Positions 11,341-28,831 of a DNA stretch of 64,000 bases are shown in pieces. Each line of letters opens with the position of its first letter. Position 1 is the stretch's first letter. The stretch lies in the NCBI GenBank assembly GCA_005400705.1, contig GCA_005400705.1_4079.1. One strand, 5' to 3'. Made by a program: the position numbers and the translations under genes. The notes below the pieces were generated by a model, which worked only from the letters and a program-made list of their open reading frames with translations, did not search any database and had not been told where the DNA came from. This DNA comes from Escherichia coli. GTDB lineage: Bacteria; Pseudomonadota; Gammaproteobacteria; Enterobacterales; Enterobacteriaceae.

Positions 11341-11402
11341 ACTTGCAAACTAAGTTTAACGGCGTATAATGTTTTACATCGAGAGCGGGAACACTTCCCG
11401 CT
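11341..11402 (+). promoter_or_regulatory. PeSL-type cassette: sigma70-like promoter plus 5' stem-loop
   Basis: aAGTACTTGCAaact, TATAAT at 11365-11370, gttttacatc, hairpin agcgggaa-cac-ttcccgct (11384-11402). Confidence 0.6.
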
Positions 11403-11425
11403 ACATATTACGAGAGATTAAAACG

Positions 11426-11788
11426 ATGGCGACTCAAATCACTAAAATTATTGCTAACCTGGTTAACTTTCGCGACGAGATGAAAGATCTTCCGGCAGAA
11501 ACGGTAAAAATTCACATTTCAGCTTATCGGGAACTTATTGCAATGTTACCGCTTAAGCGTGAACAATACGCCGCGACCGTGATGCTTGATGCGATGATCC
11601 ATAAGATGATCGCCAGTGATTTAACGATGGTTTATCAGTATATGGGCGAAAATTTCGCGGTGTATAGTAAACCAGTACCAGGAATGGAAAGTACAGAAGT
11701 ATTACACGGTTTAAATTTAAAACAAGATGCATGGGATAATATGCCTCGTTTCCTGGTATGGGCTGACAGTGGCAAGATTTACGAATAA
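11426..11788 (+). CDS. Hypothetical protein
   Basis: Track ORF 11369-11788 trimmed to first ATG after the hairpin (11426, MATQITK); 120 aa. Confidence 0.65.
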   Translation: MATQITKIIANLVNFRDEMKDLPAETVKIHISAYRELIAMLPLKREQYAATVMLDAMIHKMIASDLTMVYQYMGENFAVYSKPVPGMESTEVLHGLNLKQDAWDNMPRFLVWADSGKIYE

Positions 11789-11799
11789 GTTTTAGAAAG

Positions 11800-11861
11800 T
11801 ACTTGCAAACTAAGTTTAAAAGCGTATAATGTTTTACATCAGGTGGGGAATAGTTCCCCAC
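11800..11861 (+). promoter_or_regulatory. PeSL-type cassette
   Basis: agtacTTGCAAact, TATAAT 11825-11830, hairpin gtggggaa-tag-ttccccac. Confidence 0.6.
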
Positions 11862-11881
11862 TATATAAGAGGATTAAAAAA

Positions 11882-12121
11882 ATGGCTAAATCAAAAATGT
11901 TCTTAGGTCACAAAAACAAAACTCATTGGAATGTAAGCCTTTGGATTAATAACGATGAGTCATTGTACCGGTTGGCCCAGGACTTTATTAACGATAGCAC
12001 TAATCGCAATGATGCGGCCCGTCATATGATGTTATTTTTAGAACAGACTGGACAAGATAAAACACCGGACGGATTCAAATATAGCACTACTGCGATCCGT
12101 GCGGCGATGGTTGGAATGTAA
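11882..12121 (+). CDS. Hypothetical protein
   Basis: ATG 11882 (MAKSKMF) after SD aagagga; 79 aa. Confidence 0.65.
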   Translation: MAKSKMFLGHKNKTHWNVSLWINNDESLYRLAQDFINDSTNRNDAARHMMLFLEQTGQDKTPDGFKYSTTAIRAAMVGM

Positions 12122-12134
12122 TAGAATATATTTA

Positions 12135-12170
12135 AAGTACTATCGCAAAAAATGATAGTACTTTATAATA
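12135..12170 (+). promoter_or_regulatory. Promoter variant with AGTACT in spacer (degenerate -35)
   Basis: aaagtactatcgcaaaaaatgatAGTACTttataatag; homologous to the promoter at 23762-23796, which has a TTGACA -35. Confidence 0.4.
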
Positions 12171-12206
12171 GTGTTTTATTCATACACAAACGATAAGGGC
12201 AACAGC

Positions 12207-12473
12207 ATGAATATTAAGTATTTTGCGACGCGTGAACAAGCTCGGATCGCCGCACGCCAGGACGGGGCAACGTTTAAAGATATGGGCGTACAATCGGAAC
12301 GTGGTAAACGTTGGGCCATTATAAAGCGTAGTACCGCCAGATCATTACAGTACTGGTTAGCGGCGTTAAAAAGTCCTGATAGTGTATCGCGTCGAGTGGT
12401 AGAAATAAAGCTCGACCGAAAGGGCAACCGCGTGACCGTGTACCGTACTAAAAAGATAGCAGTACTTGAATAA
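12207..12473 (+). CDS. Hypothetical protein; paralog of 23839-24234
   Basis: ATG 12207 (MNIKYFATREQARIAARQDGATFKDMG...DRKGNRVTVYRTKK) matches KFYATREAARIVAREEGAAFKDMG...DRKGNSVTVFSKRR. Confidence 0.65.
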   Translation: MNIKYFATREQARIAARQDGATFKDMGVQSERGKRWAIIKRSTARSLQYWLAALKSPDSVSRRVVEIKLDRKGNRVTVYRTKKIAVLE

Positions 12474-12540
12474 AAGTACTTGCATACTATGTTTAAAGGC
12501 GTATAATGTTTTACATCGAGAGCGGGAACACTTCCCGCCT
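12472..12540 (+). promoter_or_regulatory. PeSL-type cassette
   Basis: aaagtacTTGCATact, TATAAT 12502-12507, hairpin gcgggaa-cac-ttcccgc. Confidence 0.6.
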
Positions 12541-12559
12541 ATAACCTGGAGTAATAAAA

Positions 12560-12790
12560 ATGACTAATATGTATATGACTGAAGTTAAAACTGTAAAAGA
12601 TACTACCACGAATAAAACTACTTACTTACAGCGGATCTGTGGTGTCTGGCAACGTATCAGCAAAATAAAGTACTATAAATTGACATCACATGCTAACCGT
12701 TCGGATTCATTCAGTACTGAAATAAAAGGTAATAAAGTACACCAATACGGCACTTATTATTATTATAGCCTGGATGCGATTGCAGTATAA
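12560..12790 (+). CDS. Hypothetical Thr/Tyr-rich protein
   Basis: 76 aa ORF after PeSL and SD ggag. Confidence 0.6.
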   Translation: MTNMYMTEVKTVKDTTTNKTTYLQRICGVWQRISKIKYYKLTSHANRSDSFSTEIKGNKVHQYGTYYYYSLDAIAV

Positions 12791-13034
12791 GCAGTTTACA
12801 AATCTTTACAATTGCCGGTATTGACTTATTTTGTCAGTACTGGCATAATGTATTCATTGGCAGATAAGCCGTAGCCCATAGGGTGCGGGAGTGTATCTAT
12901 AGAAAAAGTAGTTTATTACAGTTACAATTGTGCACCCGGTGGGTTAGCTGTTGTCATGGGGTATATTATACCAGTACTGGATAGTGCTGTCAATACCTTT
13001 TTACTATTCAGTACTGAAAACTATTTTTAAAAAG

Positions 13035-13066
13035 TACTTGCAAACTATGTTTAAAGGCGTATAATG
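13035..13066 (+). promoter_or_regulatory. PeSL-type promoter driving a structured leader
   Basis: aaagtacTTGCAAact, TATAAT 13060-13065. Confidence 0.55.
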
Positions 13067-13070
13067 TTTT

Positions 13071-13150
13071 ACATCAGGACGGGGAACGAAATAAGTAACT
13101 TCCCGTTAAGTAGCCCAGGAGTAAGGCACACGAAAAACTCCCCTGATAAA
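13071..13150 (+). ncRNA. Conserved structured RNA element, copy 1 (candidate cis-regulatory leader or small RNA)
   Basis: caggacggggaacgaaataagtaacttcccgttaagtagcccaggagtaaggcacacgaaaaactcccctg; identical copy at 22916-22990, diverged copy about 16030-16110; two predicted stem-loops. Confidence 0.35.
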
Positions 13151-13155
13151 ATAGT

Positions 13156-13183
13156 TTGACAAATGTTTTTAAAAGCGTATAAT
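13156..13183 (+). promoter_or_regulatory. Second sigma70-like promoter after the structured element
   Basis: TTGACA 13156-13161, 16 nt, TATAAT 13178-13183. Confidence 0.5.
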
Positions 13184-13215
13184 ACTTACATCAACTACTG
13201 AATGAGGGTTACAAA

Positions 13216-13827
13216 ATGAAAACTATCACTACTACTACTTTCGTTATGGCTTTTTCTGAATTGAACGCAGAACAACAAACGTCAGCTATCGAACTGGTTC
13301 GGGATCGGGAACGTTCAAGCGGTGATGATTTCTTTTCTGAGTCAGTGATCGAGTACTATAAAGAAACAGTACTACCAGAATATGGAATTGATGACGCTGA
13401 TTTGCAATTCAGTGGTTTTTGGTCGCAGGGTGACGGTGCATCAATCAGTACTGACCACGTTGACGCTGTGAAGTTTTTACGCAAGATTAAAGCATTAACT
13501 AAGTATCGTTCTATCCGTCACCTGCTGAATGAAGATGATTTGGCGATGAGTGTAAAGCGTTCTCACTCCCACTACTCGCATGAAAACACTGTAAGCGGGT
13601 ACATTGAATCGGGGTACACTGATTTAACCGCAAAACAAGAAACGTTAGTTAATGAGCTTGAGGAACTACTCACTGAAACTATTCGTGAATTATCCCGCAA
13701 GTTGTACCGTGATTTAGAGAATGCATATGAGGATCAATTCACTACTGAAAACATTACGGCACTGATTGAGGGTAACGAATATCAATTCAATGTTATTGAT
13801 GGCGTAGTAGAATCTATCGAATATTAA
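13216..13827 (+). CDS. Hypothetical acidic protein
   Basis: 203 aa ORF; SGFWSQGDGASIS motif; family not recognised. Confidence 0.7.
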   Translation: MKTITTTTFVMAFSELNAEQQTSAIELVRDRERSSGDDFFSESVIEYYKETVLPEYGIDDADLQFSGFWSQGDGASISTDHVDAVKFLRKIKALTKYRSIRHLLNEDDLAMSVKRSHSHYSHENTVSGYIESGYTDLTAKQETLVNELEELLTETIRELSRKLYRDLENAYEDQFTTENITALIEGNEYQFNVIDGVVESIEY

Positions 13828-13844
13828 TTCAGTACTGAATCAAT

Positions 13845-13863
13845 GGCGGGAGTGGTTCCCGCC
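13845..13863 (+). promoter_or_regulatory. 5' stem-loop without adjacent promoter
   Basis: ggcggga-gtgg-ttcccgcc then SD aggag and ATG 13884. Confidence 0.45.
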
Positions 13864-13883
13864 TATAACCAGGAGTAAGCATC

Positions 13884-14117
13884 ATGATCGAACAAATTCA
13901 AACGACCACAAGCCGGAGCGGAACGAAAGTACATTACATCGCTGATACTGATAAAGGTGTACCCTATTGTGCTGTACACGTAAATACTGACGGTGACTAT
14001 TGGTTAACTGTATACGGGCGTTACTCGTTTGCTTTTAGTGCACATTGTAAGATCCTGGAAGTAGTGAAGCCTACCGGTAAGAATATCACGCCGGGAAAAT
14101 GTTTTACTAAGCACTAA
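13884..14117 (+). CDS. Hypothetical protein; paralog of 15039-15275
   Basis: 77 aa; shared GVPYCAVHVNT(D/E)G(D/N)YW(L/F)TVYG...PTGKNIT. Confidence 0.7.
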   Translation: MIEQIQTTTSRSGTKVHYIADTDKGVPYCAVHVNTDGDYWLTVYGRYSFAFSAHCKILEVVKPTGKNITPGKCFTKH

Positions 14118-14118
14118 A

Positions 14119-14185
14119 AAGTACTTGCATACTAAGTTTAAAAGCGTATAATACTTTATATCGAGGCGGGGGAATGGTTCCCGCC
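14119..14185 (+). promoter_or_regulatory. PeSL-type cassette
   Basis: aaagtacTTGCATact, TATAAT 14147-14152, hairpin ggcggggga-atgg-ttcccgcc. Confidence 0.6.
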
Positions 14186-14203
14186 TTTACTGAGGATTAT
14201 CTA

Positions 14204-14491
14204 ATGAGCAAAGTAATTAACTATACAGTACTAAGCAAGTCATTATCTATTAGCCAGTGCACCGATGGTTTTTGGCTGTACGATGAAACGCGTGGCATGA
14301 ATTTAGCTATGCGGGAGAAAACTGCTGAGGCGGCGTATTTACAAGCCCTGGAATACTACCAGGAACGTTTAAAGGAAGTAGAAAACAATTATCAAAATTT
14401 AAAAGAGAAAGTAGATAATTTCGTTTGTCAATTCGTTGACGATGACGAGGAAGACGGGCACTACTGCAACCGTTGCGGATCTTACAATTAA
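14204..14491 (+). CDS. Hypothetical protein with C-terminal Cys pair (HYCNRCGSYN)
   Basis: Track ORF 14174-14491 trimmed to ATG 14204 (MSKVINYTV); 95 aa. Confidence 0.6.
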   Translation: MSKVINYTVLSKSLSISQCTDGFWLYDETRGMNLAMREKTAEAAYLQALEYYQERLKEVENNYQNLKEKVDNFVCQFVDDDEEDGHYCNRCGSYN

Positions 14492-14554
14492 GTACTTGCA
14501 ATTAGTTTTCAGTACTGTATAATGGTTTACATCAAAGGGAGAAATGGTTCTCCC
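14490..14554 (+). promoter_or_regulatory. PeSL-type cassette
   Basis: agtacTTGCAAttagttttcAGTACTgTATAAT, hairpin gggagaa-atgg-ttctccc. Confidence 0.6.
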
Positions 14555-14573
14555 TGGTAATGAGGAAAATAAA

Positions 14574-14795
14574 ATGGCTAATATCACTACTCTTTCCCAA
14601 CTGGAAGCACTGGTTAAATCTATGCGGGAACATGCCGACAAAATCGGCGTACAAGATCCAGCCGTTTGCTTCTGCGACGAATTGAATGATGATACCCTGG
14701 TAATAGCAGAAGTCCAGGACGTTTCTAACTATTCCTCGCGTTACACTGGCGGCGTAGCAAATAAAGGTGACTTCTGTTTATACCTTACAAAATAA
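14574..14795 (+). CDS. Hypothetical protein
   Basis: ATG 14574 (MANITTLSQ) after SD gaggaaa; 73 aa. Confidence 0.65.
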   Translation: MANITTLSQLEALVKSMREHADKIGVQDPAVCFCDELNDDTLVIAEVQDVSNYSSRYTGGVANKGDFCLYLTK

Positions 14796-14796
14796 C

Positions 14797-14830
14797 AACG
14801 CGGGGAGATAATAACTCCCCGTTACTTTTT
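14797..14830 (+). terminator. Rho-independent terminator
   Basis: cggggag-ataataa-ctccccg followed by ttacttttt. Confidence 0.55.
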
Positions 14831-14959
14831 CAGTACTGAATCATTTAATAGACGGATCTCGGCACCCGGTGGGTTAGTGACTGTTTCGTCTTGATGTAGT
14901 AATTATGCCAGTACTGGATGCACTTGTCAACAATTATTTTTCAAATACTTTTTATTAAA

Positions 14960-15018
14960 ATACTTGCAATTAGTTTTTAAACGCGTATAATGTTTTGCAT
15001 AGGGGGAGCGGTTCCCCT
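14960..15018 (+). promoter_or_regulatory. PeSL-type cassette
   Basis: aatacTTGCAAttag, TATAAT 14986-14991, hairpin ggggagcggttcccc. Confidence 0.55.
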
Positions 15019-15038
15019 GGTAACTAAGGAATAATAAA

Positions 15039-15275
15039 ATGCTTGAACAAATCAAATCAACGTCTTCGAATGTAACGGGAACGGTAGCACACTTTACTAG
15101 TGATGAATCGCGGGGCGTTCCCTATTGTGCTGTACATGTAAACACTGAGGGTAACTACTGGTTTACGGTTTACGGTTCATATTCATTTGGACGGCCAGGG
15201 CATCAAAAAATTCTGGATAAAGTACAGCCAACGGGTAAAAATATCACTGCTGAAATGTTTTATAAAAAATCATAA
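15039..15275 (+). CDS. Hypothetical protein; paralog of 13884-14117
   Basis: 78 aa ORF. Confidence 0.7.
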   Translation: MLEQIKSTSSNVTGTVAHFTSDESRGVPYCAVHVNTEGNYWFTVYGSYSFGRPGHQKILDKVQPTGKNITAEMFYKKS

Positions 15276-15340
15276 AGTACTTGCAATTAGTTTTTAGTAC
15301 TGTATAATATTTTACATCGCAAGGGGGAGCGGTTCCCCCT
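15276..15340 (+). promoter_or_regulatory. PeSL-type cassette
   Basis: aagtacTTGCAAttagtttttAGTACTgTATAAT, hairpin gggggagcggttccccc. Confidence 0.6.
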
Positions 15341-15359
15341 GGTAACTAAGGATAATCAA

Positions 15360-15659
15360 ATGAAAATTGCAATCATCGCCCTGGCTTTATCTGTTTCCTC
15401 TTTCGCTGTTAATGCGTCATTAGATGTAAGTAGTGAAAAATTCATTCAGTGCACTGTTGCAATGACCGATGAAAGTACTGGCGAGATTGTTTTAAAGGAT
15501 TTAGAGATCCAGCCCGAAGCATTTAAAAACGGGCCGTTCCATGAAGAAGACGAAAAAGGTAGCACGACAATTTATTACGATGCAAGTACTAAACGCGGTT
15601 CGGTCACTGTTATGGATACTGAGAAAGTAACTCATACTGGCGTTATTAATTGCCGTTGA
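15360..15659 (+). CDS. Small secreted or periplasmic protein (predicted signal peptide)
   Basis: 99 aa; N-terminus MKIAIIALALSVSSFAVNA is signal-peptide-like. Confidence 0.65.
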   Translation: MKIAIIALALSVSSFAVNASLDVSSEKFIQCTVAMTDESTGEIVLKDLEIQPEAFKNGPFHEEDEKGSTTIYYDASTKRGSVTVMDTEKVTHTGVINCR

Positions 15660-15680
15660 TAGATACTACGGGGTAACATC

Positions 15681-15911
15681 ATGACTAAGCGAATTGTTTT
15701 ACTTAACGAAAGCAGTACTACACAACTACTTAACGCCGTGCATTATGATATTGAAACGAGCGTTAATCTTATCAGTACTGTAGTACTGTTGGACACTGGA
15801 AAGGTCGCCAATGATAAAGCGATTGCAGGTATACTAACGGATCTTGAGCCTGGTAGCAGTGCACCAATAACGTTAAATGGTAAAGTGTTTAATATTTTAC
15901 TCACTGATTAA
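15681..15911 (+). CDS. Hypothetical protein
   Basis: 76 aa ORF after short gap, followed by a terminator. Confidence 0.6.
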   Translation: MTKRIVLLNESSTTQLLNAVHYDIETSVNLISTVVLLDTGKVANDKAIAGILTDLEPGSSAPITLNGKVFNILLTD

Positions 15912-15916
15912 GTACA

Positions 15917-15945
15917 TAGCCCACCTGGTGGGCTTTTTTGTTTTT
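15917..15945 (+). terminator. Rho-independent terminator
   Basis: agcccacc-t-ggtgggct then ttttttgtttttg. Confidence 0.6.
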
Positions 15946-15992
15946 GTAGTATCGTAGTACTGAGATACTTTGAAAATAGTTTTAAAAAATAG

Positions 15993-16020
15993 TTGACATT
16001 ACCGCAGAAAAGCGTAGAAT
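15993..16020 (+). promoter_or_regulatory. Sigma70-like promoter
   Basis: TTGACA 15993-15998, 16 nt, TAGAAT 16015-16020. Confidence 0.5.
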
Positions 16021-16029
16021 GTATTACAT

Positions 16030-16110
16030 CAAGACGGGGAGCACTAAGTAGACCGCCAGTAAGTCGAACGAAAAACTGGACACGTCGAGAAAACTTTGAT
16101 ACACTAATAA
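16030..16110 (+). ncRNA. Diverged third copy of the structured leader element
   Basis: agacggggagcactaagtagaccgccagtaagtcgaacgaaaaactggacacg shares gacgggga, agtaag and acgaaaaact with the element at 13071-13150. Confidence 0.25.
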
Positions 16111-16143
16111 ACGTAAACTAAACTTTAATTGAGGATTTATAAA

Positions 16144-16626
16144 ATGGCTAATGTAAAATCATTCATCAAAGCACTGGTAGCAAATGAAACTAACGTCGCG
16201 GCAGAGATCCTGGCTGATCTGGATAACGATACCATGAAAGCGGTACGCAATAATTTTAACATCGCTTATAGTACTGCGAAAGAACTACAAGCAAATAAAG
16301 CGGCAGAAATTGAAGCGGCAAAGGCGGCCCGTGAAGCAGAACTACAAGCAACAATTGAAAGTATCCAGGCGGCAGTAGTTGGATTGGATCTGGAAGTAGT
16401 TACAGAGATGGCACAAAAAGCCCTGGCGGTTAAGTATGGGGAAGATAAGCCGGAATCTAAGCCTAAAAAATGGATTCAAAAACGTGTAGCGGTAGTACTG
16501 GACAACGGGGAAGAATATCTGATTCCGGTGCGTGGTAACTGCATTGCGGTAGTACTGGATGCGATTAACTCCAGTGGTATGACTCGCGAGGAATGGATCG
16601 AAGCTCATCGCAAAGTTGAAGCATAA
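16144..16626 (+). CDS. Hypothetical protein with N-terminal coiled-coil
   Basis: Track ORF trimmed to ATG 16144 (MANVKSF); Ala/Glu-rich heptad-like stretch AAEIEAAKAAREAELQATIESIQAA; C-terminal internal repeat VAVVLDN/IAVVLDA. Confidence 0.65.
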   Translation: MANVKSFIKALVANETNVAAEILADLDNDTMKAVRNNFNIAYSTAKELQANKAAEIEAAKAAREAELQATIESIQAAVVGLDLEVVTEMAQKALAVKYGEDKPESKPKKWIQKRVAVVLDNGEEYLIPVRGNCIAVVLDAINSSGMTREEWIEAHRKVEA

Positions 16627-16645
16627 CAATTAAAGTACTGAATCA

Positions 16646-16678
16646 CTAGCCCACCTTAAACGGTGGGCTTTTTTGTGT
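16646..16678 (+). terminator. Rho-independent terminator
   Basis: agcccacc-ttaaac-ggtgggct then ttttttgtgttt. Confidence 0.65.
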
Positions 16679-16824
16679 TTATCGTTTACCAGGCCACCAG
16701 CACCGCCTAGAAACGATTCTAACGCATTAAACTGATTATCTGATGCATTGCCCTAGCTGGTGGCGTTAAGGCTGTAAGAACGCGATTGAGAGCGTTTAAA
16801 GTATTTTGCAAAAAGTAATAAAAA

Positions 16825-16885
16825 GTACTTGCACGATTAAGAGATTAGCGTATAATGTTTTACATCGAGAGGGGGAAACGGTTCT
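16825..16885 (+). promoter_or_regulatory. PeSL-type cassette (imperfect hairpin)
   Basis: aaaagtacTTGCACgat, TATAAT 16851-16856, GC-rich gggggaaacggttctcc. Confidence 0.5.
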
Positions 16886-16911
16886 CCTTCCAAATCAAAG
16901 GAATTAAAACA

Positions 16912-17139
16912 ATGGCTATCGTAATCACTCGCGTAACTGGTACTACTGGCAATTCTTCTACTGTTGCTGTAATTACTAATAAGAAAGGTGCGGAATTGCA
17001 TTTTGCAATGGATAAATGGGCCGTTAATGAGTTCGGTCAGTGGGCAAGTGTAGCATACATTGAAACCTATCAAGTGCCGTCGATTAGTTTAACTGATTTG
17101 GGCGTTGAGCGTATCCTTTGCCTGGATGAATTAAATTAA
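16912..17139 (+). CDS. Hypothetical protein
   Basis: Track ORF 16855-17139 trimmed to ATG 16912 (MAIVITRV); 75 aa. Confidence 0.65.
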   Translation: MAIVITRVTGTTGNSSTVAVITNKKGAELHFAMDKWAVNEFGQWASVAYIETYQVPSISLTDLGVERILCLDELN

Positions 17140-17142
17140 AAA

Positions 17143-17206
17143 AGTACTTGCAAAGTAAATCAGATAAAGTATAATACATTACATCAAGGGGAGAAATGGT
17201 TCTCCC
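17143..17206 (+). promoter_or_regulatory. PeSL-type cassette
   Basis: aaagtacTTGCAAagt, TATAAT 17170-17175, hairpin gggagaa-atgg-ttctccc. Confidence 0.6.
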
Positions 17207-17225
17207 TGATAATGAGGAAACTAAT

Positions 17226-17369: not shown

Positions 17370-17384
17370 AAATATTATCACAGT

Positions 17385-22906: not shown

Positions 22907-22915
22907 GTTTTACAT

Positions 22916-22990
22916 CAGGACGGGGAACGAAATAAGTAACTTCCCGTTAAGTAGCCCAGGAGTAAGGCACACGAAAAACTCCCCTGATAA
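22916..22990 (+). ncRNA. Conserved structured RNA element, copy 2
   Basis: Identical over about 90 bp to 13071-13160. Confidence 0.35.
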
Positions 22991-22996
22991 AATAGT

Positions 22997-23024
22997 TTGA
23001 CAATAGAAAGTAAACGAGTATAAT
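22997..23024 (+). promoter_or_regulatory. Second promoter after the structured element
   Basis: TTGACA 22997-23002, 16 nt, TATAAT 23019-23024. Confidence 0.5.
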
Positions 23025-23057
23025 ACTTACATCAACCACTGATAAGGAAACATTAAA

Positions 23058-23333
23058 ATGCGGATTCTACTGACAGCTAACGAAATCGAACAAGTACTGA
23101 CTACTAACCTGGAACAATGGAAACGTGATGCAGATATCCAGGCGGTTCAATGGCTTAACGATAAGTTAACGCCGGATGACTTAAGCAAGATTGTAGATCC
23201 TCAATTCTACGAAGATATCCACGACACCGCGTTAAGCGTCGAGGATGTACTTGATAAGCACTACATTGATACTGATTTACAGGTTTACGGTCGTAAAAAC
23301 TTTATCACTATCCACGACATTTACAATAATTAA
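23058..23333 (+). CDS. Hypothetical acidic protein
   Basis: 91 aa ORF after SD aaggaaa. Confidence 0.65.
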   Translation: MRILLTANEIEQVLTTNLEQWKRDADIQAVQWLNDKLTPDDLSKIVDPQFYEDIHDTALSVEDVLDKHYIDTDLQVYGRKNFITIHDIYNN

Positions 23334-23398
23334 GTATTGACAAAGTATCTTAGTACTGTATAATAGTTTACATCAAGTGAGGGGAAACGGTTCCCCTC
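23334..23398 (+). promoter_or_regulatory. PeSL-type cassette (tattgacaaagta class)
   Basis: gTATTGACAAAGTAtcttAGTACTgTATAAT, hairpin gaggggaaac-g-gttcccctc. Confidence 0.6.
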
Positions 23399-23419
23399 CT
23401 AACAAAGAGAGAAATAAAA

Positions 23420-23743
23420 ATGGCTATGATCCTTACCCAGAAAGTAGAACTGAAAATTGTAACCTCCTTTGACATTAAAGTTAATCGCTGGACTGATCGG
23501 AACGGCAATACTTACCACTCTTGCTACGTGTCTGCATTGATTGGTGATCGTTGGGAAGACCTGGGACACGAAACTTTTACATACGGTTACGGTACGCAAG
23601 GCGAATACACGGGCTTGGAGATCATTAAAGAAACCGTTATAGGTTTCAACCCGAAAGAAAAAGTTATTCACCGCATCGAAAAAGAGATTAACAAAGAAAT
23701 AACAGTTCGCTACTACGATGTAAAACGTAAGAAAGACATGTAA
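23420..23743 (+). CDS. Hypothetical protein; paralog of 17451-17795
   Basis: 107 aa ORF. Confidence 0.7.
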   Translation: MAMILTQKVELKIVTSFDIKVNRWTDRNGNTYHSCYVSALIGDRWEDLGHETFTYGYGTQGEYTGLEIIKETVIGFNPKEKVIHRIEKEINKEITVRYYDVKRKKDM

Positions 23744-23761
23744 TAGAATCCATTTAAAGTA

Positions 23762-23796
23762 CTATTTGACATTACACAGATAGTACTTTATAATAG
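23762..23796 (+). promoter_or_regulatory. Sigma70-like promoter (homolog of 12135-12170)
   Basis: aaAGTACTaTTTGACAttacacagatAGTACTtTATAAT. Confidence 0.55.
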
Positions 23797-23838
23797 ACTC
23801 TAGCTTGTAGTACTAACTTAACTAATAGGATGTATACC

Positions 23839-24234
23839 ATGATTACTAAATTCTACGCTACCCGTGAAGCTGCCCGTATTGTTGCACGCGAGGAAGGAGC
23901 AGCATTTAAAGACATGGGCAAAGATGCACCGAAAGGCCAACGCTGGGCCGTACAGTTCAAAGAGATCTCTGATATTGTGAATTCACCGGAGCCAGTACTG
24001 ACAGCAGCAGAACAGAAGAAAGCTGATGAACTGTCAGCAGTTCTTAACGCTCAAGATGACTTTATCGCGGGTTCTGATATTAAAGTTTCCGTAAATTCGA
24101 ATGCATGGACTCACGCGGATCATCTGGCTAACTTGAAGCGTCCAAGTGTACTGATTCGCAACCAACGAGAGATCCGCCACGACCGCAAGGGAAACAGTGT
24201 TACTGTATTCAGTAAACGCCGCCAGGTTATCTAA
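23839..24234 (+). CDS. Hypothetical protein; paralog of 12207-12473 with central insertion
   Basis: ATG 23839 (MITKFYATREAARIV...); 131 aa. Confidence 0.65.
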   Translation: MITKFYATREAARIVAREEGAAFKDMGKDAPKGQRWAVQFKEISDIVNSPEPVLTAAEQKKADELSAVLNAQDDFIAGSDIKVSVNSNAWTHADHLANLKRPSVLIRNQREIRHDRKGNSVTVFSKRRQVI

Positions 24235-24256
24235 TAACTTGCAGTACTAACAACAC

Positions 24257-24284
24257 GGCGGGTTCAGTTCCCGCCTTTTTTTTA
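24257..24284 (+). terminator. Rho-independent terminator
   Basis: ggcggg-ttcagtt-cccgcc then tttttttt. Confidence 0.7.
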
Positions 24285-24298
24285 TAGGATAAACTAAA

Positions 24299-24553
24299 AT
24301 GATGAAGGTACAACTATCTAAAGATAATATCTTGCGGGTACACTATAAAGCACCACAGAGAATCATCACAAAGGCCGTACAGCTTGCTAATGAGTTTATT
24401 AATGGTAGTCTATTACCCAGGAAGTTAAGCAACGGGAAACTACGTGTTATCGATGTAGACACTAACAATAGAATAGTAATTGAGAGTACTGGAAAAATTA
24501 ATCTATATGAACACCAACAATACAATAAAAAAATAAAACTAATATCACGTTGA
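24299..24553 (+). CDS. Hypothetical protein
   Basis: 84 aa ORF. Confidence 0.5.
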   Translation: MMKVQLSKDNILRVHYKAPQRIITKAVQLANEFINGSLLPRKLSNGKLRVIDVDTNNRIVIESTGKINLYEHQQYNKKIKLISR

Positions 24554-24580
24554 CAGTACTCAATTGTTTTAGTATTATGT
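24548..24580 (+). promoter_or_regulatory. Sigma70-like promoter (duplicate module A)
   Basis: TTGACAgtactcaattgttttagTATTAT; near-identical to 24824-24856. Confidence 0.5.
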
Positions 24581-24606
24581 ACACATACCAACACGGGAGA
24601 AACAAA

Positions 24607-24825
24607 ATGAAATTATCTAAAATCGAAAAGAAAACTATTGATGAAGCAGTTAAGCACGGTTATACCTTTCGTAATGATTCACATTTTACCAATTTTCAAC
24701 AAGGGTATCGTACTATTAAAAAACTAATTGACAAAGGTTTATTAGTTGAAGTCAATAACGGCAATGGCATTGAGTATCAACCAACACAGGACGCATTTTA
24801 TTTTAAGAAATATAATATTATCTAA
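24607..24825 (+). CDS. Hypothetical protein
   Basis: Track ORF 24550-24825 trimmed to ATG 24607 (MKLSKIEKK); 72 aa. Confidence 0.6.
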   Translation: MKLSKIEKKTIDEAVKHGYTFRNDSHFTNFQQGYRTIKKLIDKGLLVEVNNGNGIEYQPTQDAFYFKKYNII

Positions 24826-24856
24826 TTGACAGTACTCAAATGTTTTAGTACTATAT
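24824..24856 (+). promoter_or_regulatory. Sigma70-like promoter (duplicate module B)
   Basis: TTGACAgtactcaaatgttttagTACTAT; same leader accaacacggg(g/a)a(a/g)aaacaaaATG as at 24580-24606. Confidence 0.5.
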
Positions 24857-24883
24857 GTACATACCAACACGGGGAAAAACAAA

Positions 24884-25126
24884 ATGATTACTTTAGAAAA
24901 ACGTATCAAAGAAACTACATCGCTGGTGGAACTGTTAACAGTACTGAAATGTAAAACAACACCATTCAGCACGCCGGACTTTATTAATATGGTTGATGTT
25001 AATGGTCGCTATCGCATCACGGTCGAACAAGGAGCGGCGAAAGTATTCAGTACTAAAAACACCAAGGAAGTGATCCACGCCGTTAATGTTAAAAAAGTAG
25101 TTGCCATTGATAGTAAAGTACTGTAA
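24884..25126 (+). CDS. Hypothetical protein
   Basis: 80 aa ORF. Confidence 0.6.
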   Translation: MITLEKRIKETTSLVELLTVLKCKTTPFSTPDFINMVDVNGRYRITVEQGAAKVFSTKNTKEVIHAVNVKKVVAIDSKVL

Positions 25127-25157
25127 TATAGTTTCATTAACTCAAGGAGAACATGCA

Positions 25158-25742
25158 ATGCGTAATTATACTAAATTCATCCGTACACTGTCAGAAATGG
25201 AAACCAACAAAGAGATCCTTTCAGCTTGTCGGTTAGCTGGCCTGGAGATCATCGGTGCTGGTTCTTCCCGTATAGTATTCGCTTTAAATGATCGGTTAGT
25301 GATTAAGGTCGCGAATTGTGATGCGGGTGTAGAACAAAATGAAACTGAATGTAAGGTATGGAATTTTTTAGACTATGACCGCCCTCAGTTGAAACAGTAC
25401 TTTGCAAAGGTGCATATGCATTTATGCGATCCTGATAATATGTTTATCGTTATGGATCGGTTGAGTACTGCAAGCAAAGGCAGTGTGAAGCACGTTAACG
25501 CGTGCAATGAATTAAAGTACAATATTAAACGTAATGCCATTGAACGCCAGCACCGCTTTGCTGATGCACTACAACACGTTGATGATACCTTATCAACACT
25601 AACTATAAGAGATATCAGAAAACAGAATATCGGCCAGGATCGCAACGGCTTGATTAAAGTACTTGATTACGGTTTAACCCGCAATATCTGGAATCAGTAC
25701 TATAAAAAGCGTGATGTAAAAGCCGTAACTATAACACGATAA
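25158..25742 (+). CDS. Putative minimal protein-kinase-like protein
   Basis: Track ORF trimmed to ATG 25158 after SD aaggaga; 194 aa with kinase-like motifs in canonical order: IGAGSSRIVF, VIKV, FIVMDRL, RDIRKQN, VLDYG. Confidence 0.45.
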   Translation: MRNYTKFIRTLSEMETNKEILSACRLAGLEIIGAGSSRIVFALNDRLVIKVANCDAGVEQNETECKVWNFLDYDRPQLKQYFAKVHMHLCDPDNMFIVMDRLSTASKGSVKHVNACNELKYNIKRNAIERQHRFADALQHVDDTLSTLTIRDIRKQNIGQDRNGLIKVLDYGLTRNIWNQYYKKRDVKAVTITR

Positions 25743-25760
25743 AAAAGATTAAAAAAGGGA

Positions 25761-25789
25761 TTGACTCCGGTCAGTCCCTTTGCTATTAT
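25761..25789 (+). promoter_or_regulatory. Promoter inside the repeated 100 bp element (copy 3)
   Basis: gggaTTGACTccggtcagtccctttgcTATTAT. Confidence 0.5.
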
Positions 25790-25872
25790 ATATGCATGAA
25801 AACAATCTAACCCACCGGGTGCATAAATGTATCTATTATATAAGTATTCAGTACTGAAAACTATTTTTAAAA

Positions 25873-25937
25873 AGTACTTGCATACTATCTCAATTCGCGT
25901 ATAATGTTTTATATCGAGAGGGGGAAATGGTTCTCCC
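25873..25937 (+). promoter_or_regulatory. PeSL-type cassette
   Basis: aaagtacTTGCATact, TATAAT 25900-25905, GC-rich hairpin agggggaa-atgg-ttctccct. Confidence 0.6.
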
Positions 25938-25959
25938 TGGTACATTAAGGAATAAAATC

Positions 25960-26367
25960 ATGACTACTACCAATCAAGCTCGGAACATCACCAACGATAA
26001 AAATCATGCTGCAATGGTCGCTGGATACATTGAAGCTATGCAATTCAGTACTGTATACAATGAGAACGGCGATTACCTGGAAGATTATGAATTATCAGAG
26101 CAAGCCCATCAAGCGGCAGTGATTGCATGTTCACGTTTCCTTGCTGTACATGGTGAAGATATGGAAACAGTACAAAAACACCATAATCCTGATTATACTT
26201 ATAATCATGCAGGTCATGATCTCTTTCTTACTCGCGAAGGTCACGGCACTGGCTTTTGGGATCGTGATATCGGTCACTATGACGATGTATTCACTAAGTA
26301 CTGCGAAGAAATCAACGTTTGCGATCCCTATGTAGGCGATGATAATCTAATCTATATGGGCGAATAA
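25960..26367 (+). CDS. Hypothetical protein (His/Asp-rich)
   Basis: Track ORF 25927-26367 trimmed to ATG 25960 (MTTTNQARN); 135 aa. Confidence 0.65.
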   Translation: MTTTNQARNITNDKNHAAMVAGYIEAMQFSTVYNENGDYLEDYELSEQAHQAAVIACSRFLAVHGEDMETVQKHHNPDYTYNHAGHDLFLTREGHGTGFWDRDIGHYDDVFTKYCEEINVCDPYVGDDNLIYMGE

Positions 26368-26369
26368 AA

Positions 26370-26432
26370 GTATTTGACAAAGTATATCAGTACTGTATAA
26401 TAGTTTACATCAAGGGGAGAATAGTTCTCCCC
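26370..26432 (+). promoter_or_regulatory. PeSL-type cassette (tattgacaaagta class)
   Basis: TATTTGACAAAGTAtatcAGTACTgTATAAT, hairpin ggggagaa-tag-ttctcccc. Confidence 0.6.
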
Positions 26433-26456
26433 ACACCAATAAAAGGAAACAAAATT

Positions 26457-26729
26457 ATGTCCAGCTACTCCGCTACTATGATCATTAAAGATATGAACGG
26501 TAATCCTACTTCTGCTGGTGGATCATTTGGAAATATTAACTTAGATGGGCGGTTATCCATGCAATCAGCCATTGATGCAGCGAAAGAAGTTTTTAAGAAT
26601 GAATGTACTGTAAGTAAGCTGGATTATATGGGATTCGCTATCGAGAAAACTAATCGTTTTGTGAACTACAAAAATCCACTGATGATCGATACTAACCTGA
26701 AAGCAAACGAAGTGGAATACTTATTATGA
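26457..26729 (+). CDS. Hypothetical protein
   Basis: 90 aa ORF after SD aaaggaaa. Confidence 0.65.
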   Translation: MSSYSATMIIKDMNGNPTSAGGSFGNINLDGRLSMQSAIDAAKEVFKNECTVSKLDYMGFAIEKTNRFVNYKNPLMIDTNLKANEVEYLL

Positions 26730-26917
26730 CAGTTGAAGAAGTTAAAAAAGTACTGGCAGTACTACGCTATCATAATCATTGTAAGGTGAAGAATGATCCT
26801 GATTATGTTGATTCATCCCTGGAGGAAGACACCTTAAACGCGATAAGCCATATGCAAACATTAGCAAAGCGTATGACCGAAAAGAATAGGCCGGACTATA
26901 TCGGAAATAAAATTTAA
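26726..26917 (+). CDS. Hypothetical protein
   Basis: 63 aa ORF; ATGA overlap with previous stop. Confidence 0.55.
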   Translation: MTVEEVKKVLAVLRYHNHCKVKNDPDYVDSSLEEDTLNAISHMQTLAKRMTEKNRPDYIGNKI

Positions 26918-26918
26918 A

Positions 26919-26986
26919 AAGTACTTGCATTGTAGTTAGATTAACGTATAATGTTTTATATCGAGAGGGGGAAATGGTTTCCCCTC
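26919..26986 (+). promoter_or_regulatory. PeSL-type cassette
   Basis: aaagtacTTGCATtgtag, TATAAT 26947-26952, hairpin gagggggaaa-tg-gtttcccctc. Confidence 0.6.
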
Positions 26987-27004
26987 AAGTCCAGGAGATA
27001 CACC

Positions 27005-27268
27005 ATGAACGCTATTGAAATCACTATCAATGCACACGTATACGACAACGTAGTACTGCAAACTACTATGACCGCTAACGATACCAGTACTTTGCGGAAT
27101 ACTGTTATTAGTGCTGTATGTGCCGCTATCGGTGATGTCGCCCTGGAAAATGCAAAACACGTAAACGATGGTTTCACTATGTGCAAACGTGATAACGCAA
27201 AACATATCATCGTAGAAGGTTACGGCGGTGTAGAATATAATGTTTATATGAAAAAAGTACTTGCATAG
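27005..27268 (+). CDS. Hypothetical protein
   Basis: Track ORF 26951-27268 trimmed to ATG 27005 (MNAIEITINA); 87 aa; 3' end overlaps next promoter. Confidence 0.65.
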   Translation: MNAIEITINAHVYDNVVLQTTMTANDTSTLRNTVISAVCAAIGDVALENAKHVNDGFTMCKRDNAKHIIVEGYGGVEYNVYMKKVLA

Positions 27269-27317
27269 TACTGAATAAAGCGTATAATGTTTTGCATAGG
27301 GGGAGATATCCTCCCCC
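27255..27317 (+). promoter_or_regulatory. PeSL-type cassette
   Basis: aaagtacTTGCATAGTACTGaataaagcgTATAAT, hairpin gggggag-atatc-ctccccc. Confidence 0.6.
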
Positions 27318-27335
27318 ACTAAAAGGAGTATTAAA

Positions 27336-27560
27336 ATGGCTAACTTTGATGAACTGATGCGGGAAGTAGCTAACCTGGCAGAAGAGAAGAAATCATTCGA
27401 TTCTATCTATAACACCGCTCACCGTGATTCAGTACTGGCATGTAACCAGGATCAAAAAGATGAACTAATCGCCACATATCATGAAGCATGGAAGTACTAC
27501 CGACAATGGGAGAAAGAAGAAAGCGAGTCTACCATCGAAGGTATCAATAATCTAATCTAA
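27336..27560 (+). CDS. Hypothetical acidic protein
   Basis: 74 aa ORF after SD aaaggag. Confidence 0.65.
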   Translation: MANFDELMREVANLAEEKKSFDSIYNTAHRDSVLACNQDQKDELIATYHEAWKYYRQWEKEESESTIEGINNLI

Positions 27561-27577
27561 AAGTTTTATTTCAGTAC

Positions 27578-27612
27578 TATTGACATAGCTTGATAGTACT
27601 GATATGATAACT
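27578..27612 (+). promoter_or_regulatory. Sigma70-like promoter (same class as 17385-17420)
   Basis: cAGTACTaTTGACAtagcttgatAGTACTgaTATGAT. Confidence 0.5.
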
Positions 27613-27635
27613 TTACTAACTAAAGGGGAAACATA

Positions 27636-27893
27636 ATGGAACAGTTCACACAATATCGGGTAAATCCAATTGCTACAGCCTACGTAGAAGACCATAAAAC
27701 GTTACCAGTACTGCAACCAGTTAAAGGCCGTATCTATCGTGGCCTTGCCTGGGATACGGCCCAGGATGGATATAAAACCGTCGCCGTGGGGATGTATTGC
27801 GGGAATGGTGAATGGTTTGATCCTAACAATCCGATTGCACTTGACAGTACTGAAAAAATGAAATGGTCCGACTACATCGAAGATATTTCATAA
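27636..27893 (+). CDS. Hypothetical protein
   Basis: 85 aa ORF after SD aagggga. Confidence 0.65.
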   Translation: MEQFTQYRVNPIATAYVEDHKTLPVLQPVKGRIYRGLAWDTAQDGYKTVAVGMYCGNGEWFDPNNPIALDSTEKMKWSDYIEDIS

Positions 27894-27897
27894 AAAC

Positions 27898-27962
27898 TAT
27901 TTGACAGTACTAACCAGTAATGTATAATGTTTTACATAGAGCGGGGGAATAGTTCTCCCGCC
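27898..27962 (+). promoter_or_regulatory. PeSL-type cassette
   Basis: TTGACAgtactaaccagtaatgTATAAT, hairpin gcggggga-atag-ttctcccgc. Confidence 0.6.
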
Positions 27963-27983
27963 AATAGTTTGGAGTAAAACATT

Positions 27984-28184
27984 ATGTCTATCGCTATCGC
28001 CCTGGTTGAAGTACTGAAAGAAGCTAAAGCCAACCTTATCGATGTACAGATTAAGGAATTGCAAAACGGCTTAATCGGCTGTACTTGTACCGCTGGTGGA
28101 GCGGCAGACTATCGAGAACACGAATCACTCGAATCACTGGTTCGGTATCTTACCATGATCGTTGATGATTGGAGAATCATCTAA
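27984..28184 (+). CDS. Hypothetical protein
   Basis: 66 aa ORF after SD ggag. Confidence 0.6.
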   Translation: MSIAIALVEVLKEAKANLIDVQIKELQNGLIGCTCTAGGAADYREHESLESLVRYLTMIVDDWRII

Positions 28185-28205
28185 CAAAAAAGAATAAAAA
28201 AGGGA

Positions 28206-28234
28206 TTGACTCAGGTCAGTCCCTTTGCTATTAT
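28206..28234 (+). promoter_or_regulatory. Promoter inside the repeated 100 bp element (copy 4)
   Basis: gggaTTGACTcaggtcagtccctttgcTATTAT. Confidence 0.5.
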
Positions 28235-28343
28235 ATACGCATAGACAAAAACTAGCCCACAGGGTGCATAAGTGTATCCAAAATATATAGTTAATAACGG
28301 TGAGTAACTATCTGCTGGTGGAGTGAAAACTATTAATAAAAAA

Positions 28344-28378
28344 AGTATTGACAAAGTATATCAGTACTGCGATAATGT
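28344..28378 (+). promoter_or_regulatory. Sigma70-like promoter (tattgacaaagta class)
   Basis: gTATTGACAAAGTAtatcAGTACTgcGATAAT. Confidence 0.5.
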
Positions 28379-28429
28379 ATCTCGTAGGGCGGCAATGGTG
28401 CGACGGCCCACAAAGTTAGGAGATTCAAA

Positions 28430-28762
28430 ATGACTACTTCAATCGCTATCGTTAAAGCTTTCATCCGTACTAATGTTTCCTCTGTATTCATCGACGGCCT
28501 CGACCGTAACGTAGAATACTCAATCATTATCGCACAAACGGCAAACGGTTCTCGGTACATCCTGAATGATAGTGAAGCAAATCACTACTACTTCACTAAA
28601 GCCACTGGCTTTAAACGCATCGATGCTGATGTAGTATACGCTAAGATGAATAAGCTGGTAGACAAGATTAACGCGAAAGGTACTATCGATTTACAGTACT
28701 GGACCGAAACCGATCCAGAATATGGATCACACCGCTACCTGAATCCAGGTATCAAAATGTAA
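28430..28762 (+). CDS. Hypothetical protein
   Basis: 110 aa ORF after SD aggag. Confidence 0.65.
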   Translation: MTTSIAIVKAFIRTNVSSVFIDGLDRNVEYSIIIAQTANGSRYILNDSEANHYYFTKATGFKRIDADVVYAKMNKLVDKINAKGTIDLQYWTETDPEYGSHRYLNPGIKM

Positions 28763-28763
28763 A

Positions 28764-28831
28764 AAGTACTTGCATAGTACTTAGATTCATGTATAATGTT
28801 TTACATAGAGAGGGGGAAATGGTTCTCCCTC
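28764..28831 (+). promoter_or_regulatory. PeSL-type cassette
   Basis: aaaagtacTTGCATAGTACTtagattcatgTATAAT, hairpin gagggggaa-atgg-ttctccctc. Confidence 0.6.

Follow-up and report, generated by a model that had tools for sequence, protein, structure and literature searches.

Promoter and leader-hairpin cassettes in a probable early gene block of a Rak2-like jumbo coliphage

Promoter-early stem-loops (PeSLs) are composite promoter/terminator elements of T4-type phages, known from phi1/RB49, PST/T4 and nt-1/KVP40 (PMC2839356; PMC4122927). In most of them the stem-loop either precedes the promoter or sits between or on top of its −35 and −10 boxes, and a role as terminator or attenuator has been shown or argued for it; recombination between PeSLs leads to indels and mini-circles (PMC2839356; PMC4122927). 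Here we describe a repeated unit of about 90 bp, the cassette, that recurs between positions 11341 and 28831 of a 64,000-nt stretch of DNA (contig GCA_005400705.1_4079.1 of assembly GCA_005400705.1; the whole stretch is referred to as the window). Each cassette joins the stop codon of the upstream gene and an A-rich tract to a promoter, the trinucleotide CAT, a hairpin, a Shine–Dalgarno sequence (SD) and an ATG. We found no prior description of these cassettes in the open-access literature on Asteriusvirus or Rak2-like phages: the paper on phage CBB lists RpoD-like promoters with UP-like elements and no hairpins, and that on RaK2 does not mention promoters.

A preliminary description of this DNA had equated the cassettes with the PeSLs of T4-type phages. 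Judged by its sequence, the window instead derives from an Asteriusvirus-type (Rak2-like) jumbo coliphage, which is not T4-type in the strict sense. The likeness to PeSLs is nonetheless extensive: a unit of ~70–90 bp, an upstream stop codon in an AT-rich tract, a near-consensus σ70 early promoter, a stem-loop made of a G-run and a C-run, an SD and an ATG. Both kinds of element occupy the most plastic part of the genome and stand before ORFan genes, and in both the breakpoints of indels and replacements between close relatives fall in the elements. Measured against the geometry given in the two papers, the cassettes differ in that their stem-loop always lies downstream of the predicted transcription start (+1), at a near-fixed distance. 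Their hairpins also lack terminator features and show covariation of an RNA type (G·U pairs and essentially no A·C), and they belong to Rak2-like jumbo phages, within a probable terminal repeat of ~21 kb. Only the rare PeSL subclass "downstream of −10" resembles their anatomy (PMC2839356). The equation thus stands for the link to plasticity, the ORFan context, the promoter and the SD and ATG, and fails for the position of the stem-loop, while a role as terminator is not supported; the cassettes are a variant of the PeSL idea and not PeSLs in the strict sense.

Other described systems share parts of this design. The hairpin class typified by the 5′ untranslated region of ompA, worked out in the Belasco laboratory in the early 1990s, comprises 5′-terminal stem-loops that stabilize E. 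coli mRNAs. The cassettes share with it a short, stable hairpin near the (predicted) 5′ end, upstream of and clear of the ribosome site, whose sequence is free as long as it pairs; they differ in that most would leave ~5 unpaired 5′ nucleotides, more than is optimal, and in a purine/pyrimidine asymmetry of the two arms that is not a feature of the ompA class. The boxB element of lambda nut is likewise a small hairpin with a GC stem in the promoter-proximal transcript, but it needs a conserved purine-rich pentaloop on a 5-bp stem together with boxA, whereas the cassette loops are 3–5 nt long and unrelated in sequence; antitermination would moreover not be needed here, because every gene has its own promoter. 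The RNase III hairpins of the T7 early region are structured elements before each early gene that shape mRNA ends and stability, yet they are at least ~20 bp long, contain internal loops and lie in one long transcript, whereas cassette stems measure 7–10 bp and each follows its own promoter.

At the level of the whole block, a parallel is the first-step-transfer (pre-early) region of T5, an early gene block in a long terminal repeat in which we know of no repeated leader hairpin. The block shares with that region and with the terminal repeat of PA5oct many small genes of no known function, strong promoters for host RNA polymerase and the placement in a terminal repeat. PA5oct is a related phage that depends on host RNA polymerase and whose terminal repeat holds 105 genes, many of them highly transcribed early; it differs in that the paper on it reports no repeated leader hairpin (PMC7318152).

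Anatomy of the cassettes and selection on pairing

The cassette promoter is of near-consensus σ70 type, and sequence scans find AAGTAC-TTGCA(A/T) or TTGACA, a spacer of 16 nt and TATAAT. The stop codon of the upstream gene often overlaps the start of the cassette, as in TAA-GTACTTGCA and TAG-TACTTGCA. The CAT that follows the −10 box has an invariant A and T (A14 and T15 of the cassette alignment), and its conserved A, 8 nt after the −10 hexamer, is the predicted +1. The hairpin begins 8–14 nt (median 12) after TATAAT, past the predicted +1 in all 23 complete cassettes, and has the form GGGRA…UYCCC with a stem of 7–10 bp and a loop of 3–5 nt. With transcription starting at the A of CAT, 1–7 nt (median 5) would remain unpaired 5′ of the hairpin; on its other side, 14–24 nt (median 19), SD included, separate the end of the stem from the ATG.

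Comparison of the cassettes with those of related phages shows that, on the sense strand, the base pairing of this hairpin is preserved. The sample consisted of the window and five Asteriusvirus loci, whose 114 cassettes contain 45 distinct hairpins and 65 distinct hairpin-plus-flank sequences; plain MAFFT alignments put triloop and tetraloop hairpins in different registers, and the alignment was rebuilt around anchored loops with N padding. Standard pairs fill 97.9% of the cells for these 65 hairpins; column shuffles give 84.8%, none of the 500 attaining the real figure, and slid 3′ partners give 56–71%. Cells changed on both sides number 74, as compared with 21.5 in shuffles, and double changes are seen at six of the eight pairs, for example G-C, A-U and G·U at the fourth pair from the loop and G-C, A-U, U-A and C-G at outer pairs. 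When up to two non-Watson–Crick pairs are allowed, 24 G·U or U·G pairs appear versus one C·A and no A·C. Comparison of orthologues gives the same picture, in that single substitutions proceed via G·U and loops change freely (cac/cuc, auga/aaac/uag), and three genes carry a wholly different, still paired hairpin in another phage. In the Klebsiella phage RaK2, the same position after AAGTACTTG…TATAAT holds stems of other sequence (GGGAAUGAA/UUCAUUCCC, GGGGCAA/UUGCCCC, GGGAGAGA/UCUCUCCC and GGGAAACA/UGUUUCCC); in an Erwinia relative, the hairpin is absent at most promoters. The paired changes, the G·U bias, the RaK2 stems and the strict sense-strand orientation together argue that the structure is selected in the transcript, as had been proposed at the outset from stems that vary by paired changes and loops that drift.

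The hairpin is also specific to its place. A covariance model built from 25 tetraloop hairpins and run unfiltered on both strands of the whole window matched, on the + strand of the 64 kb, only the cassettes, a hairpin at 13841 and three weak sites on a different hairpin. Minimum-energy folds of 14 predicted leaders gave a single hairpin in every case (−10.6 to −16 kcal/mol), with the SD and ATG unpaired. The fold z-scores of these leaders, −1.3 to −3.7, are individually modest, so the case for structure rests on recurrence and covariation. A search of window positions 9000–31000 against Rfam 15 in a permissive E-value mode returned three chance-level matches (E 0.46–0.87), none of them at a cassette, and no covariation of stem type with SD sequence was seen by eye. 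We also considered an alternative fold in which the 3′ pyrimidine arm pairs with the true SD, as in a translational switch, and rejected it: it is strong in two cassettes only (18926 and 28792), with a mean z of −0.9 relative to shuffled trailers.

The 8 nt that follow the stem contain on average 1.8 T (range 1–3), with no T-run longer than 3, whereas the true terminators of the block (15918, 16648 and 24257) have 6–8 T. A terminator scan called none of the 23 stem-loops. The missing U-tract, the result of the scan and the freely accessible SD are sequence features that argue against the cassette hairpins acting as intrinsic terminators.

Cassette inventory, homology breakpoints and the probable terminal repeat

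The motif GTACTTGCA occurs exactly 21 times in the 64 kb, always within 11339–28774 and on the + strand in 20 of the 21; allowing at most one mismatch raises the number to 67, where shuffled sequence gives 15 ± 4. Promoter scan and hairpin search together yield 23 complete cassettes, and beyond these two long-loop variants without a clear open reading frame (ORF; 13060 and 22901) and one promoterless hairpin (13841–13867). The features are as follows, with −10 boxes given by the first position of the hexamer unless a range is stated.

11337–11428, + strand: cassette 1; −35 TTGCAA, −10 at 11365–11370, hairpin 11384–11402 (AGCGGGAA-cac-UUCCCGCU), ATG at 11426.
11797–11884, + strand: cassette 2; −10 at 11825, hairpin 11842–11862 (GGUGGGGAA-uag-UUCCCCACU), ATG at 11882.
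12474–12562, + strand: cassette 3; −10 at 12502, hairpin 12522–12538 (GCGGGAA-cac-UUCCCGC), ATG at 12560.
13032–13160, + strand: long-loop variant 1; −10 at 13060, then ACGGGGAA-cgaaauaaguaa-CUUCCCGU; no clear ORF; second promoter at 13156–13183.
13841–13886, + strand: promoterless hairpin 13841–13867 (GGCGGGAG-ugg-UUCCCGCC) with SD and ATG at 13884.
14119–14206, + strand: cassette 4; −10 at 14147, hairpin 14163–14187, ATG at 14204.
14490–14576, + strand: cassette 5; −10 at 14518, hairpin 14536–14555 (AGGGAGAA-augg-UUCUCCCU), ATG at 14574.
14958–15041, + strand: cassette 6; −10 at 14986, hairpin 15000–15019, which begins 1–2 nt past the predicted +1, ATG at 15039.
15275–15362, + strand: cassette 7; −10 at 15303, hairpin 15322–15340, ATG at 15360.
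16823–16914, + strand: cassette 8; −10 at 16851, hairpin 16869–16890 with two G·U pairs, ATG at 16912.
17142–17228, + strand: cassette 9; −10 at 17170, hairpin 17188–17207, ATG at 17226.
18669–18756, + strand: cassette 10; −10 at 18697, hairpin 18715–18734 (GGGGAGAA-auga-UUCUCCCC), ORF start codon at 18754.
18898–18984, + strand: cassette 11; −10 at 18926, hairpin 18944–18963, ATG at 18982.
19490–19577, + strand: cassette 12; −10 at 19518, hairpin 19537–19555 (AGGGGAAA-cgg-UUUCCCCU), ATG at 19575.
19925–20013, + strand: cassette 13; −35 TTGACA, −10 at 19953, hairpin 19971–19990, ATG at 20011.
21768–21850, + strand: cassette 14; −10 TATAGT at 21796, hairpin 21812–21830 (AGGGGAA-acauc-UUCCCCU), ATG at 21848.
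22039–22125, + strand: cassette 15; −35 TGGACA, −10 at 22067, hairpin 22085–22104, ATG at 22123.
22337–22424, + strand: cassette 16; −10 at 22365, hairpin 22383–22401 (GAGGGGAA-uag-UUCCCCUC), ATG at 22422.
22873–23000, + strand: long-loop variant 2, a near copy of the 13060 variant; −10 at 22901, then a promoter at 22997–23024.
23331–23422, + strand: cassette 17; −35 TTGACA, −10 at 23359, hairpin 23379–23398, ATG at 23420.
25872–25962, + strand: cassette 18; −10 at 25900, hairpin 25919–25938, ATG at 25960.
26368–26459, + strand: cassette 19; −35 TTGACA, −10 at 26396, hairpin 26414–26432, ATG at 26457.
26919–27007, + strand: cassette 20; −10 at 26947, hairpin 26965–26986, ATG at 27005.
27255–27338, + strand: cassette 21; −10 at 27283, hairpin 27299–27317 (GGGGGAG-auauc-CUCCCCC) in a register unlike the others, ATG at 27336.
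27895–27986, + strand: cassette 22; −35 TTGACA, −10 at 27923, hairpin 27941–27961, ATG at 27984.
28764–28854, + strand: cassette 23; −10 at 28792, hairpin 28810–28831, ATG at 28852.

The preliminary description had correctly recognized promoter–hairpin–SD–ATG cassettes before small ORFan genes in a highly mosaic region, and its interval, 11341–28831, matches the first −35 box and the last hairpin exactly. Its count of about 35 comes down to about 25. A full cassette precedes about half, rather than most, of the ~47 crudely called ORFs, some of whose called start codons are wrong. Among the stems it quoted, gcgggaa/ttcccgc, ggggaa/ttcccc and gggagaa/ttctccc are present as written, and ggggaaac/gtttcccc is really GGGGAAA-cgg-UUUCCCC. 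A tally from promoter scans puts the σ70-like sites on the + strand of the block at ~42, of which ~20 carry no hairpin; these hairpin-less promoters have short leaders of 27–45 nt and are mostly of TTGACA-N17-(TGn)CATAAT types. ATGs inside several loops (…GAGAA-ATG-GTTCTC…), although in frame, were rejected as start codons, since they lie only 2 nt from the SD-like GGAG and the annotated relatives start at the downstream ATG.

The best DNA matches to the block are Asteriusvirus phages such as ELP-22, fEgEco12, phAPEC6, G17 and 121Q, at 89–96% identity. No single matching record covers more than 54% of it, and the block is therefore strongly mosaic. G17 and phAPEC6 have a hairpin resembling that at 13841 (GGCGGGGAG-ugg-UUCCCCGCU) with an intact promoter, before a different gene, and the gene of cassette 20 carries in phAPEC6 another, still paired hairpin (CGGGGGAA-uag-UUCUCCCG). 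As anticipated for elements that take part in gene shuffling, homology breakpoints against the five relatives are unevenly spread: the cassettes, 13% of the block by length, hold 22 of the 45 breakpoint clusters (p ~1e-8), an overlap of BLAST ends that is a correlation and not a mechanism. In cassette 8 (16851), positions 16866 and 16899, which flank the hairpin, are the two breakpoints of a gene-sized indel relative to G17, fEgEco12 and 121Q.

A search with one cassette matched ~70 phage records, and cassette-like sequences are found in Rak2-like phages of Escherichia, Salmonella, Klebsiella, Erwinia, Serratia and Yersinia. Outside this group, positions 4028–4543 of Escherichia phage A7_1 (Vequintavirinae, ~145 kb) hold two cassettes before small genes of 228 and 144 bp, with the stem-loops GCGGGAA-tag-TTCCCGC and GGGGAGAA-atga-TTCTCCCC; they are also present in the records A73 and nepoznato. 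These cassettes and their genes are almost identical to Asteriusvirus ones, which suggests that cassette-plus-gene modules have been transferred between unrelated phage lineages.

The block probably lies inside a long direct terminal repeat, as it does in relatives. The termini of fEgEco12 and its direct terminal repeat of 20,993 bp have been confirmed by PhageTerm and restriction digests (PMC13070987). In alignments, base 1 of fEgEco12, like that of ELP-22, corresponds to window position 9690, and the first fEgEco12 gene, g01, is the counterpart of the gene at window position 11426; the alignment with fEgEco12 base 1 and the g01 match place the block in the left part of the probable repeat:

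9690–30680, no strand assigned: direct terminal repeat holding the block, probable extent; left end from the alignment, right end inferred from the 20,993-bp repeat of fEgEco12.

The genes of the block are small and mostly of no known function, as are eight of the ten proteins tested; the ten include a DksA/TraR-type zinc finger protein, a GNAT acetyltransferase and a weakly kinase-like protein. No tRNA genes were found. Downstream of the last cassette (29300–31000 and beyond) follows a tight array of overlapping ORFs of ~200 bp, with ATGA-type overlaps and no individual promoters. It continues in ELP-22, 121Q and phAPEC6 as a run of ~25 consecutive genes of ~70 amino acids that looks like a paralogous array.

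The window contains 12 copies of the E. coli Chi sequence GCTGGTGG, where 0.5 would be expected, and they span 10266–28321. The copies lie on the − strand at 10266 and 16694 and on the + strand at 10278, 16756, 20480, 20990, 21941, 22841, 24922, 26514, 28092 and 28314; all 12 fall within the probable terminal repeat, with none in the remaining ~46 kb, and an opposed pair stands ~580 bp from the inferred left end. The fetched early regions of fEgEco12, ELP-22, 121Q, phAPEC6, RaK2 and the Erwinia phage show the same clustering, and the shorter G17 locus has one site. To judge from its distribution, the clustering looks like protection of DNA ends against RecBCD.

Other repeats of the block

The commonest hexamer of the window is AGTACT, with 278 copies versus ~21 expected from base composition. 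Its density is 6.9/kb in the repeat region and 2.5/kb downstream, and it is densest at 9690–29300. Copies, most often in the form CAGTACTG, are found in each of the three reading frames as well as between genes, and the hexamer overlaps both the extended −10 (CAGTACTGTATAAT) and the −35 box (AAGTACTTGCA). The loci of RaK2 and the Erwinia phage show equal enrichment, and the Vequintavirinae locus shows none. From this distribution AGTACT appears to be a DNA-level signal, to which we assign no role.

Composite terminator/promoter hairpins (AAAGGGATTGAC-tccg-GTCAGTCCCTTT-gcTATTAT) lie at 19367–19402, 22753–22788, 25754–25789 and 28199–28234. Their 5′ arm and loop contain the −35 box and their T-rich tail runs into the −10, which by its sequence is the classical, archetypal PeSL geometry, found here in a repeat other than the cassettes. 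Each drives one copy of a CCCAYMGGGTGC element, and a leader-hairpin cassette follows ~90 nt later; elements resembling the composite hairpins are present in RaK2 and the Erwinia phage.

The CCCAYMGGGTGC elements belong to a second repeat family of ten copies, at 10779(−), 10995(−), 12875(+), 12932(−), 14862(−), 19429(+), 20823(+), 22810(+), 25811(+) and 28256(+). Each has its own σ70-like promoter, ~20–30 variable nucleotides, a nearly invariant A(A/G)CCCAYMGGGTGC and then …TGTAWCT. No ORF and no convincing consensus fold was found in the ten copies, and similar elements exist in the RaK2 and Erwinia relatives. They could be small RNAs or protein-binding sites; the terminal repeat of PA5oct produces abundant non-coding RNAs (PMC7318152). 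Further upstream, at 10055–10130, lies a promoter (TTGACT-N16-TATAAT) that is the first strong one called by the scan past the inferred left end of the genome. Behind it comes a different hairpin, GATGAGTTG-ccgcaaa-CAATTCATT, with no ORF. This pair is conserved at about nucleotide 388 of fEgEco12 and ELP-22, is also present in 121Q and phAPEC6, and could be a leader or a non-coding transcript.

Possible functions of the leader hairpin and their meaning

We favor, with moderate confidence, a reading in which the cassette is a modular early-expression unit whose 5′ leader hairpin stabilizes or insulates the mRNA, and in which the cassettes double as recombination patches. The block would be an immediate-early region read by host RNA polymerase, and about half of its small ORFan genes would be single-gene expression modules, each made of a stop codon in an A-rich, UP-like tract, a σ70 promoter, a start at CAT, a GC-clamped hairpin and an unstructured, A-rich leader with SD and ATG. 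The hairpin would form in the mRNA 1–7 nt from its 5′ end, where it may slow decay that depends on the 5′ end, and may confine the folding of the leader to the leader itself, leaving the ribosome site accessible regardless of the ORF that follows. The outcome would be strong early expression independent of context. The ~90-bp copies would at the same time offer patches of homology for the insertion, deletion and swap of genes and for their movement between phage lineages, because they are repeated ~25 times in one orientation.

Several observations weigh against this reading. The position of +1 is derived from promoter geometry, and with +1 at the A of CAT most leaders would have ~5 unpaired 5′ nucleotides. 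According to work on 5′-terminal stem-loops in the Belasco laboratory, ~5 such nucleotides are reportedly at the edge of what still protects an mRNA. The hairpin is not essential for early expression, since it is missing from ~20 early promoters of the block and, in the Erwinia relative, from most promoters. The loop-anchored alignment was pre-selected for at least six contiguous pairs and so leans towards structure, and many of the double changes are probably replacements of whole hairpins by recombination between paralogous cassettes; an estimate from the distinct stem types puts the independent compensatory events at probably ~6–10, not 74. BLAST breakpoints would also cluster at conserved repeats beside variable ORFs even if the repeats caused no recombination. 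Finally, purines without exception dominate the 5′ arm and pyrimidines the 3′ arm, the inner GAA/UUC hardly changes, and all 65 hairpins share one invariant G-C pair, which hints at a sequence-specific constraint on top of pairing, or at shared ancestry.

This constraint bears on a second explanation, which we consider unlikely although it accounts for several features: the hairpin may be an operator, a common site at which an RNA-binding protein or endoribonuclease, either encoded by the phage or hijacked from the host, recognizes the hairpin-bearing early messages, and thus a joint off/on switch for them at the early-to-middle transition, by analogy with RegB and RegA of T4. The GGGR-rich 5′ arm and YCCC-rich 3′ arm, with their fixed inner positions, would fit such a site, as would the GGAG in many 5′ arms, which is missing, however, from about half of the stems. 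Even RaK2 retains the GGG…CCC base, but the upper-stem sequences there differ completely, and the asymmetry of the arms could be mere shared ancestry. The restriction of the hairpin to a subset of early promoters is as expected for a regulon. Against an operator speak the loops, which vary in both length and sequence (cac, uag, augg, acgg, auga, aaac, cgg, acauc, auauc), and the fact that no candidate protein was identified.

That the cassettes are PeSLs in the strict sense, in which the stem-loop attenuates or terminates read-through from upstream and each gene is driven by its own promoter only, seems to us improbable. A GGGG…CCCC stem-loop of this general kind from phi1/RB49 reduced downstream lacZ as much as rrnB T1 (PMC2839356), the cassettes stand in tight head-to-tail gene arrays, and ARNOLD annotates one orthologous hairpin of G17 as a terminator. 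A hairpin downstream of its own promoter, however, would equally terminate its own transcript, and the cassette hairpins have no U-tract and escape the terminator scan. The block has canonical terminators with 6–8 U (15918, 16648, 24257) and dedicated composite terminator/promoter hairpins (19367, 22753, 25754, 28199) elsewhere.

Still less probable is that the hairpin is a passenger, a functionless relic in a cassette spread by duplication and homogenized by gene conversion. The cassettes do fall into sub-families in which transcribed leader, stem and trailer are linked, and many hairpins of paralogues are identical, GGGGAGAA-auga-UUCUCCCC recurring 16 times across the six loci. A relic, however, would not be expected to keep its pairing while loops and flanks diverge, to take single substitutions of the G·U type with essentially no A·C, or to be matched by unrelated stem sequences at the same position in another genus. 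The least credible explanation is a DNA-level element, an inverted repeat acting as cruciform or single-strand hairpin for a recombinase or resolvase, or as a replication or injection signal, with the RNA irrelevant: some breakpoints do lie inside hairpins (14165, 15000, 18734, 18952) and G·T is the least destabilizing mismatch in DNA too, but orientation and position are strictly tied to promoter and sense strand, no copies exist outside 5′ leaders, and the counts for the + strand (24 pairs of G·U type, a single C·A, no A·C) imply destabilizing A·C on the complementary strand, which a symmetric duplex or cruciform would not tolerate.

A more far-reaching form of the operator idea, which we regard as more doubtful still than the operator itself, is that Rak2-like jumbo phages possess an "immediate-early regulon" with the leader hairpin as its RNA operator. 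A phage factor, be it an RNA-binding protein or an endoribonuclease, would recognize the GGGRA…UYCCC stem and so time the joint shut-off of all hairpin-bearing messages. If this were so, an ORF captured between two cassettes, including those exchanged with unrelated coliphages such as Vequintavirinae, would gain both strong expression and correct timing, because the operator travels with promoter and ribosome site as a ~90-bp unit.

On our favored reading of the cassettes as early-expression modules, the idea of a mobile regulatory cassette extends from classical T4-like phages to the terminal-repeat early region of Rak2-like jumbo phages, and the stem-loop part of a mobile cassette need not be a terminator but can be a structure of the transcribed leader on which selection acts at the RNA level. 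The cassettes would offer a simple explanation of how dozens of ORFan host-takeover genes may be gained, lost and swapped, even across phage families, with their expression intact. They may also serve in E. coli as ready-made, compact expression parts, probably of great strength and insulated from their context.

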